Positions 6,113 to 8,113 of a stretch of 8,932 bases of DNA are shown piece after piece (within the stretch, counting starts at the first letter, position 1; every line of letters starts with the position of its first letter). A program made the translations under genes and the position numbers. The stretch lies in IMG/VR virus record IMGVR_UViG_2617270961_000002; one strand, given 5' to 3'. Below the pieces are notes generated by a model. It saw only the letters and a program-made list of their open reading frames with translations. It was not told the DNA's origin and made no database searches. This DNA is from a virus. Taxonomy: Monodnaviria; Loebvirae; Hofneiviricota; Faserviricetes; Tubulavirales.

Positions 6113-8113
6113 TCAGGGACAGTTATTGTCACAAGTCCAAGGGTCGGCTTCGCCGCCCCCACCCGCCGCGCGGGAGCGCGTCGTGCGGTGTCGTGAAGCC
6201 GACGAAATAAACACAGATTCATAGCTGCTGCCGCTTCTGACTTCCTCTGCGCGGATTTTTTCTGCGGGGGTCATACGGCGGACAACACAGCCCATAAAAC
6301 GGGTTATGACCGGAACGGGGCCAAACATGAAACCGGAAATCACCGGTGCGCAGGGTTCACCGTAACGGTTAAAACGGGGTTTACCACCTTCCTGCGGCTG
6401 AACGTAAAACGGACGAAGCAGACGTTCAGAACAGAAGAAACCGCCGTTCAGCAGGATATAGGTCCGGAAATCGCCTGCATCACAGGCCATGCGGATGGCC
6501 TCCAGTTCGGCGACCTGCTGCGGCGTGAACTGCTGCATATTGATATGATGTGCTTCAAGCGGTGAACGAAAAGTACGCATCTGGCGGTAAGCCGTGACGG
6601 ACGGAACGCCAAAGAACTGGAACAGGCGAAGGCGCGTTGCTTTCTGCCAGCAGGCGGCACGGCTGACGGCATCACAGAATGAACGGGCAGAATAACGGTC
6701 ATTCAGGGCGGTAATACCATCCGCACTGACATCACCCGCCATTTTGGTGATGTACTTCACGATGTAACGGAAACCATCACCCTTTTCAGGGTCAATAGCC
6801 TCAATACGAATACGGTGCTCTTTCGCCCCCTTTTCATCCGGCTCATCGCGCATGGCCTCTTCACGGAAAATGGCCAGCACCGTTGCGCTCTCATGGGGAT
6901 TGCAGTAAATCAGGAAATTCCAGTGCGTTGTACCGTCAGCATGAGGCTCGACCGTGCGCAGACCGGGTATCTGAATACCGGCTTTATCCAGTCTGCGGCA
7001 GACCCGACGCCAGACGGTATTCAGCCAGGCGTGCGAATCCTTAACGGTCGGGCAACCTGCTTCCCACCATTTTTTATTCGGACGAGAATGCCATTTTCCG
7101 GCAACCTTAAAACTGGTCGTCGGGTGAAAACGTGACGGCGTGGTGAGCACGATGAAGTAGCCGGACAGCCCCATATCTTCGGACAGTTCACAGACGGCCT
7201 TTCCACGAACGCAGAGTTCAGCAATCCGGTTTTTCGGATTCGAAACAGAGGCGTTATGCGCATCTTCCAGCGTACAGACCAGCTCATTAAAGGCATCAAA
7301 GACGCCGGAGGACCGGAGATACTTTTTCACGCGTTTACTGCGGACAGCAAAGAGGTCGCGGTGCCAGTCGGAAATATAAGGCGCGTTGCGGTTCAGTATG
7401 CCGAGCATGCGGCAGACCTCATTGACCCGCTGGTCACGGACAACCCGCAGGAAACGGGTGACAAAAGCCAAATCAGTCAGACGTTTAAGCAATCCCTCAT
7501 CGCCGTAACGCTCATGATAAGTGGCATAAACGGGCGCGAAATCAAAGCCGGAGATGTCCTGAAAATAGGCCATTACATTGAGAAGGTGCTGTTCTGCAAC
7601 ATCACTATAAATGGCCCGAGAAACAAGGCAGTCACGAACAACCGAATCAGCCACCTCAGCAAGCTGTTCATCAGTGCAGAAAAGCGAGAATTCATAAGGG
7701 TCTCCGTCCTGATTGAAGAAAGCAAAACGGTGCGCGGACTCAAGCGCCATCAGCGCATTTTTCACACCGAGCTGATAAACAAGACGGCAGAAAGCGTGTG
7801 CCACGGTGAAGGAAAACGAGCCAAACTGTGAAACCAGTCCGGCAGCCTTACCCCTGTCAGCGAGAGATAAATCCGTGCAGTTAATTCCGTAAATCACACG
7901 GTCAACCTGCGTGTTACGTGGCAGGGCAAGCTGTGAAGACAGTACCCCGACCTCATCACGATACTGGCGGGAAAGCGTGACAAGGTTGCGAGTGGCAACA
8001 TCGCGCTCAGCCCGAAAATGCTCACGTTCGGGCAGCGTCAGACAGGGACGACCAAGGGCAACAGATGCCGCGTCGATGGAGTTATACGCTGTGAGGATGG
8101 CTGATTCAGTCAT
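6113..8113 (-). CDS. Rolling-circle replication initiator (phiX174 gpA / P2 gpA-like Rep)
   Basis: 667 aa from the ATG at 8113 (GGGGGAG Shine-Dalgarno sequence upstream; the track's 700-aa version carries an N-terminal extension that overlaps the upstream ORF). Double-tyrosine motif [10 protein letters not shown] (Tyr codons at 6764-6766 and 6752-6754) resembles the phiX174 gpA active site YVAKYVNK (from memory); a His-containing segment HWNFLIY lies about 50 aa upstream. Confidence 0.85.

Follow-up and report, generated by a model that had tools for sequence, protein, structure and literature searches.

The filamentous phage genome held as IMG/VR record IMGVR_UViG_2617270961_000002 (8,932 nucleotides (nt); hereafter the window) carries on its minus strand, at 6113..8113, a rep gene for a 666-residue protein, Rep. 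Comparison with related genomes makes it very probable that Rep is the two-tyrosine HUH-type initiator of a dif-integrated inovirus prophage of Escherichia coli and Citrobacter, and that it nicks DNA at the 3' end of its own gene. Judged by its sequence, Rep is an ordinary member of the P2 gpA/phiX174 gpA family of rolling-circle nickases. The family of Rep and its RefSeq annotation were already known; what is added here is a predicted origin, the conservation of that origin in inoviruses and P2-like phages irrespective of reading frame, and HUN, a variant of the HUH motif.

Rep scores 167 bits with the Pfam model Phage_GPA (PF05840; E=7e-49), whose cut-off is 31.4, the match spanning residues 206-457. 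A longer stretch, residues 124-666, is matched by PHROG 91, "nicking at origin of replication" (E=5e-129). The first-pass annotation of this DNA had proposed that Rep is a two-tyrosine initiator of the phiX174 gpA/P2 gpA type and had suggested hidden Markov model (HMM) searches of rolling-circle replication initiator families as a check; these strong matches, together with an aligned tyrosine pair, bear the proposal out. Besides Phage_GPA, the Pfam scan returned just a sub-threshold match to REP_ORF2-G2P, and at E<=0.1 there was no match to PF05144 or PF05155 (Ff pII) or to PF02486 (Rep_trans); an NCBIfam scan returned nothing for Rep or the neighbouring proteins. By tblastn, Rep has matches in 382 of 50,697 phage records, which take in P2 gpA, HP2 Rep and many further P2-like phages, the top record being that of VFJ, a filamentous phage of Vibrio, whose ORF698 is 29.7% identical across 84% of the query. 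In an exhaustive phmmer search 1911 cluster representatives pass E<=1e-3, of which 507 also pass E<=1e-30, and the cluster of a 98%-identical protein has 2063 member sequences. The annotation itself is routine, RefSeq having already given E. coli proteins 97-98% identical to Rep the name "replication endonuclease". No relative of solved structure is detectable by sequence, a sequence-profile search of the PDB yielding noise only (E>=0.08), and a Foldseek search of the PDB with a model of Rep gave nothing at E<=0.001; microvirus initiators turn up among the structural matches of the predicted model. A full-text literature search for the motif strings returned unrelated papers only.

All three rolling-circle replication motifs fall within the Phage_GPA domain (6743..7498, on the minus strand, as are all features of the window given below unless stated otherwise). 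Motif 1 (residues 320-331, 7121..7156) fits the family pattern hydrophobic-x-T-L-T-x-P-S...H, with T324, P326, S327 and H330 invariant, and in an alignment with P2 gpA, VFJ ORF698 and phiX174 gpA it lines up with FITLTAPSKYHP of P2 gpA. Motif 2, the metal-binding motif (residues 389-399, 6917..6949), lines up with EPHHDGTPHWH of P2 and H..D...HFH of phiX174; E389, P390, H391, D393 and H397 are invariant. Motif 3 (residues 448-457, 6743..6772) contains the catalytic pair Y450/Y454 and K457 and matches the Y-x-x-K-Y-x-x-K pattern of the family, YIVKYITK of Rep being aligned with YIAKYISK of P2 (450/454) and YVAKYVNK of phiX174 (343/347). The alignment suggested earlier as a second check thus sets the YxxKY motif column for column on the tyrosine pairs of P2 gpA and phiX174 gpA. 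Both pairs are active-site tyrosines according to the work cited as ref. 25 in PMC3986222, for P2, and as ref. B63 in PMC5714925, for phiX174. Across 49 homologues H391, D393, H397, Y450, Y454 and K457 are invariant.

Motif 2 of Rep ends in H397-W398-N399, with Asn399 at the position of the second histidine of HUH. The H-W-N sequence is found in 32 of 32 members of an enterobacterial inovirus clade (E. coli, Salmonella, Morganella, Providencia and Xenorhabdus, 40-86% identical to the query and including the window) and in none of 17 relatives outside it, all of which have H-x-H; the second histidine of EPHH is likewise gone throughout the clade. An independent set is provided by the open reading frames (ORFs) that adjoin the predicted origin element, described below, in a scan of at least 120 IMG/VR contigs: the histidine is present in 106 of the 107 that were readable, and the sole asparagine belongs to essentially the same phage as the window. 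Has Rep then become an inactivated or domesticated remnant? The histidine so consistently kept by the 17 non-clade relatives and the scan ORFs would favour this, yet we judge it very unlikely. The invariance of Asn399 in 32 sequences as divergent as those of the clade points to purifying selection on an intact, full-length protein, the other catalytic residues are invariant, and the cognate origin has been kept. Prophage copies occur in tandem, contigs about one genome long (8731 and 8403 nt) carry rep, and the 98%-identical cluster is as large as stated above. An amide ligand also has a precedent in the circovirus Reps, accepted HUH members with a HUQ motif in which the Gln amide coordinates Mn2+ (PMC9973303). 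The retention of Asn399 across a divergent clade, with the other catalytic residues intact, thus argues for a functional variant and not for decay; Asn399 is a putative metal ligand.

That Rep is instead an HUH-Y2 transposase or relaxase (IS91- or Helitron-like, or conjugative) seems hardly credible: no such Pfam family matches at E<=0.1, there is no fused helicase domain, rep stands first in a complete inovirus replication-morphogenesis operon, and P2 gpA and phiX174 gpA are themselves replication initiators. The HUH-Y2 domain of the Helitron Helraiser (PDB 7lcc), a eukaryotic transposase fused to a helicase, is 10% identical to Rep, and any likeness is one of fold only.

Where does this initiator cut? 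Cross-genome conservation suggests that Rep most likely cuts at the 3' end of its own gene, with the nick at or beside base 6138 of the minus strand. Short sequences common to the window and to Salmonella and Xenorhabdus loci, whose Reps are 42-46% identical, led to GTGACAATAACTGTC at the end of rep, and its extension to the 25-nt CCTTGGACTTGTGACAATAACTGTC (6118..6142), the predicted (+)-strand origin core. In the relatives listed the 25-mer is present in single copy, on the rep strand, at or just past the rep 3' end. Its mismatches number 0 and 1 in two other E. coli inovirus lineages, 1 in Salmonella diarizonae, 1-3 in four Xenorhabdus genomes, 3 in Vibrio phage VFJ, 1 in Vibrio phage PE002, 2 and 5 in two metagenomic inovirus contigs (Rep 28-29% identical), 4 in an Endozoicomonas element, and 3, 4, 6 and 6 in the tailed phages HP2, ST79, K139/Kappa and P2, while nowhere else in those loci does a site come closer than 8 mismatches. 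An alignment of the element (A4) has 15 invariant columns over 16 genomes. The P2 copy occupies record positions 29888-29912, and the GenBank "nick site at ori", 29892, is motif position 5; from this site the 25-mer of the window differs at 6 of 25 positions. Homology with this annotated nick places the expected nick of Rep at base 6138 or beside it. A search for the P2 nick 15-mer GCCTCGGAGTCCTGT, with up to 3 mismatches, gave no match because this 15-mer covers the half of the element that varies.

A degenerate form of the origin pattern matches the window once and none of 200 shuffles. Of 23 loci, 19 have one match for each copy of rep, and those without a match are phiX174, the CTX core record, a small plasmid and L008, a locus of Xenorhabdus hominickii. 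The IMG/VR scan with the same pattern gave matches in at least 120 contigs; in 115 of those listed, a gpA-type ORF on the same strand overlaps the pattern or ends no more than 64 nt before it, and in four of the five exceptions the pattern is close to the edge of the locus.

On the evidence of these genomes the element is conserved as DNA, whatever the reading frame, and not as protein. In the window it is read as PWTCDNNCP and stop, the last nine codons of rep. The Salmonella element is in another frame, SALDL and stop, with the stop codon inside the element; that of VFJ, read as ALDSCH and stop, straddles the end of rep; in PE002 and in L015, L016 and L017 it follows the rep stop codon, and in the Xenorhabdus prophages it lies about 190 nt beyond. 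In Xenorhabdus it is contained in a possible 78-residue ORF that follows rep and precedes the gene V-like gene (L007 10022-10258, with equivalents in L009-L011). An alternative role for the 25-mer would be as an expression signal of the gene V-like gene, whether terminator, attenuator or translational operator, or as nothing but conserved coding sequence. Its position in inoviruses, where rep meets the following gene (9 contigs among the IMG/VR matches listed) and, in the loci checked, some 14-48 nt ahead of the gene that is annotated or predicted to follow, would suit such a signal, as would the hairpin ahead of it in several genomes. This nevertheless appears unlikely, given conservation irrespective of frame or coding status and the position of the element in the 106 P2-like contigs among the matches listed, where it is 100-760 nt inside rep and well before the gene end. 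The P2 copy, moreover, holds the annotated replication nick, and there is no T-run of the kind found in intrinsic terminators.

Directly 5' of the core is a GC-rich hairpin, GGGgCGGC-GAA-GCCGaCCC (6141..6159), found by folding of the single-stranded DNA (ssDNA; window z=-2.4). Hairpins of 4-7 GC-rich base pairs with a 3-nt loop, ending 0-2 nt before the element, are present in the window, L016, L018, HP2, ST79, K139/Kappa and P2, and their stem sequences differ from genome to genome.

In classical Ff phages the origins lie in a large intergenic region, and nick sites for Rep had been proposed on first annotation at 8361-8494 or in a repeat array at 1315-2049. The former carries two CGCATGCG palindromes; the latter, in which a 339-bp unit is repeated in tandem slightly more than twice, lies between the Zot and secretin genes and is conspicuous non-coding DNA. 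A Rep otherwise as described here but cutting in either place is highly improbable, since both regions are missing or reduced in two E. coli prophages (L001 and L002) that encode a Rep 97-98% identical to that of the window, yet match the window at 100% over a 61-nt segment containing the 25-mer. Nothing in L001 matches 8361-8494, of which just 23 nt are left in L002, and a single copy of about 80 nt replaces the array in L002. A P2-type element was sought in both regions and found in neither. The repeat unit is plasmid-like and does not resemble any Rep nick site: its first 57 nt (e.g. 1315-1371), TTCCGCTTCCTCG..CTCACT..GCGGCGAGCGG, give 92-97% matches to stretches of about 70 nt in many enterobacterial plasmids of 2-7 kb, and resemble the primosome-assembly-site region of ColE1/pUC. 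Regions that near-identical Reps can do without, and that have no P2-type element, are thus unlikely as the (+) origin. From its sequence 8361-8494 looks like a divergent promoter/operator region, its palindromes being operator-like, and the array may be a complementary-strand origin, which we offer as a lead only. The regulatory end at 8115-8932 has the character of a swappable module, in which an 81-residue ORF upstream of rep has no counterpart in L001 or L002 and a divergent 71-residue ORF is 90% identical in just one of them.

Several observations weigh against the conclusion that Rep is a gpA-type initiator that nicks within the 25-mer. Literal HUH is absent from Rep, H-W-N taking its place. 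The P2 nick is a one-base GenBank annotation, leaving the exact phosphodiester bond uncertain. L008 is without the element, in a locus that holds a run of N, and in Xenorhabdus, Salmonella, VFJ, PE002 and L017 there is at best a weak hairpin. The best site in phiX174 has 10 mismatches to the 25-mer, implying that the origin homology reaches P2-like phages only.

For a gpA-type initiator nicking at the end of rep, the following course can be proposed. The catalytic core (about residues 206-460), as homology shows, carries motif 1, a predicted metal site formed by H391, D393 and H397 with Asn399 replacing the second HUH histidine, and Y450/Y454 followed by K457. Rep would nick the phage coding (+) strand in CCTTG|GACTTGTGACAATAAC (6142-6118, minus strand, the bar marking the cut), as the match of this cis element to the P2 nick suggests, within the last ten codons of rep and some 36 nt upstream of the gene for an ssDNA-binding protein; the GC-rich hairpin just 5' of the site probably aids recognition. 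If the parallel with phiX174 gpA and P2 gpA holds, one tyrosine would become covalently joined to the 5' end, and a host superfamily 1 helicase and DNA polymerase III would extend the 3'-OH. Once a round is complete, the second tyrosine would cut the regenerated origin and the first would religate the displaced strand, releasing circular ssDNA to be coated and extruded. A plausible, if speculative, role for the clade-specific helical N-terminal 205 residues is duplex-origin recognition or melting, or contact with a host factor, by analogy with phiX174 A*, which lacks the N-terminal part of gpA.

This N-terminal region had been described as unusually long, with roughly 400 residues that could not be assigned. 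An alignment of 49 gpA-family proteins puts the first catalytic tyrosine at 377-539 (median 467), so that 450 in Rep is typical, and the pair of P2 gpA has exactly the same numbers, 450/454. The region looked long because Rep had been compared with Ff pII, which belongs to another family; the prototypical E. coli filamentous phage initiators are pfam05144/05155 proteins (PMC4439123). As for assignment, the description is right for residues 1-205 alone, Phage_GPA covering the rest from 206 and PHROG 91 from 124. Residues 1-205 (7499..8113) form a helical module that the enterobacterial inovirus clade alone possesses. They have no match in the HMM libraries scanned (Pfam and NCBIfam), distant relatives can be aligned by phmmer only from about residue 200 on, and hhalign of the N-terminus of the clade against P2-like N-termini gives a probability of 1.8% and so shows no homology. 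Within the clade the module has 43% mean column identity, with F97, G98, F100, A105, F145, D148 and L151 invariant. The AlphaFold2 model of Rep is confident overall, with a predicted local distance difference test score (pLDDT) of 88.8 and a predicted template modelling score of 0.85, and in it residues 1 to about 250 are predicted to be purely helical. Beyond the catalytic domain come a conserved mixed alpha/beta region (residues 458-628, 6230..6742), common to P2 gpA and VFJ Rep, and a tail predicted to be disordered (residues 629-666, 6116..6229; pLDDT below 50), which closes with the origin element read as protein.

The rep frame is unbroken down to the stop codon at 6113-6115, the coding sequence having 2001 nt with the stop included. 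The coordinates first given for it were those of a real ORF, and the size, 667 residues, was one too many because the stop had been counted. A program-made ORF opens at TTG 8215; ATG 8113 is the better start, because it is preceded by the Shine-Dalgarno sequence GGGGGAG (8118..8124) and, one base before it, by the TAG (8115-8117) of the 81-residue ORF. RefSeq gives a close relative the same 2001-nt coding sequence. The 81-residue ORF (8115..8360) belongs to PHROG 3104, of unknown function, and the one-base gap implies that translation of rep would be coupled to it.

All long ORFs of the window are on the minus strand and form an inovirus genome, with the gene order of the group (rep, ssDNA-binding protein, coat, receptor-binding protein, pVI-like protein, Zot/pI and, in some, secretin) and a length within its range of about 6-12 kb; relatives are on contigs of 8.1-8.7 kb. 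The gene next after the origin element (5657..6082, 141 residues) has the position of an ssDNA-binding-protein gene, with a match to PHROG 30648 and a faint one to Pfam Putative_G5P (E=0.076). There are also small coat-like ORFs, a 464-residue Gly/Ser-repeat protein of the receptor-binding type (3636-5030), a 118-residue ORF (3277-3633), Zot/pI (2063-3274; Pfam Zot, PF05707) and a secretin (68-1276; Pfam Secretin, PF00263); the 71-residue ORF (8495-8710) is transcribed divergently, opposite to rep. Within the 464-residue protein, 4063-4413 comprises at least seven 39-nt repeats that encode (GSGGSSGSGGSGS)n linkers, as in g3p-type proteins. Rfam at gathering thresholds found nothing in the window, and megablast against the phage collection gave no match.

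Prophages in a few complete E. coli genomes, and a Citrobacter youngae record in the plasmid collection, are 94-99% identical to the window. The E. coli prophages are inserted between ydeQRST and hipBA, sometimes in tandem, and abut an intact dif; the window itself opens within a dif-like site (positions 1-13; reverse complement AGTGCGCATAATG). The junctions were read at L001 3985-4015 and L002 3915-4015. In E. coli 600029 the prophage abuts the intact dif AGTGCGCATAATGTATATTATGTTAAAT, and the tandem junction of E100341 has an imperfect dif and, at a distance of about 70 nt, a second half-site that is dif-like and inverted, an arrangement that looks like a CTXphi-style folded attP. Some 95 nt of the E100341 type of junction are absent from the window. 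A dif-integrated lifestyle has been described for CTXphi, YpfPhi and CUS-1 (PMC4266046). Further E. coli inovirus lineages, with Reps 58-64% identical, are at non-dif loci and have an IS110-family (DEDD_Tnp_IS110) transposase gene directly upstream of rep (L013 4919-5872, L014 4924-5568 and L015 5045-6001, abutting rep in the last), which suggests a different route of integration.

How does this system compare with those already named? Rep and P2 gpA agree in Pfam family, in alignable motifs 1-3 and in tyrosine numbering, and the two phages share the origin core CTYGGAsTysTGwCAATAACTGT, a GC hairpin before it and its location inside rep, downstream of the conserved core. The proteins are nevertheless just about 28% identical over 61% of the query, their N-terminal 200 residues have no detectable similarity, and gpA has EPHHDGTPHWH in place of a motif ending in H-W-N. 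P2 gpA, with 761 residues, continues for about 135 beyond the origin, whereas Rep ends there, and P2 is a tailed double-stranded DNA phage, whereas the window is that of a filamentous ssDNA phage. VFJ (Inoviridae, Saetivirus) is likewise filamentous, with a gpA-type Rep of about 700 residues, annotated as similar to fs2 ORF716, and with rep as its first gene followed by that for the ssDNA-binding protein; it differs in its low identity, its canonical H-N-H motif 2 and its Vibrio host, and its record annotates no origin. The phiX174 gpA (Microviridae) also has its origin inside the initiator gene, as well as an alignable tyrosine pair and motifs 1 and 2, but is 19% identical and 513 residues long.

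The phages CTXphi and YpfPhi/CUS-1 resemble that of the window as dif-integrated inoviruses, often in tandem, with a small divergent gene upstream of the replication genes. The initiator of CTXphi is from a different family, however, RstA being reported as a pfam02486 protein that nicks a hairpin loop of a 167-bp intergenic origin (PMC4439123). A tblastn match (H37) that would have placed RstA in the gpA family was rejected, as it falls in flanking "uncharacterized" V. cholerae O139 DNA. The gpA-like region concerned (L012, AF416590.1, 4822-5715; 31% identity to residues 167-456) flanks the CTX core and may come from a neighbouring fs2/VFJ-like prophage. There are no Yersinia proteins among 92 Rep homologues, and by this comparison YpfPhi/CUS-1 probably uses another initiator. 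The Endozoicomonas atrinae element (L018) has a gpA-type Rep of 575 residues (6001-7728) and the origin element with its 4 mismatches. It does not look like an inovirus: a neighbouring gene (9937-10749) encodes Pfam P2_N and P2_C domains, which belong to the spike protein of the corticovirus PM2, and the same Rep-origin cassette thus seems to be present in a third type of virus.

Homology with the P2 nick thus provides a concrete 25-nt origin prediction for widespread dif-integrated inoviruses of E. coli, Citrobacter, Salmonella and Xenorhabdus, and implies one origin core common to tailed P2-like phages and filamentous phages of the gpA type, which belong to two virus realms. An element conserved in any reading frame also illustrates clearly how DNA acting in cis can constrain the tail of a protein: with the origin at the rep/gene V boundary, some Reps have PWTCDNNCP imposed on their C-terminus, and others leave the element to intergenic DNA. 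The clade-wide change from HUH to HUN is a natural variant of the metal site, which those who engineer HUH-tags could exploit or test. We raise tentatively, as less probable than not, the further idea that the enterobacterial inovirus Reps are a distinct sub-family of gpA, marked by the H-W-N site, loss of the second histidine of EPHH, a private helical N-terminus of 200 residues and a P2-type origin moved to the rep/gene V boundary. If this is true, they would represent a new and compact HUH-Y2 enzyme whose 25-nt target is defined, and a mechanistically distinct variant should the asparagine shift metal preference or the balance between nicking and joining, or should the N-terminal module recruit a different host helicase (Rep or UvrD).

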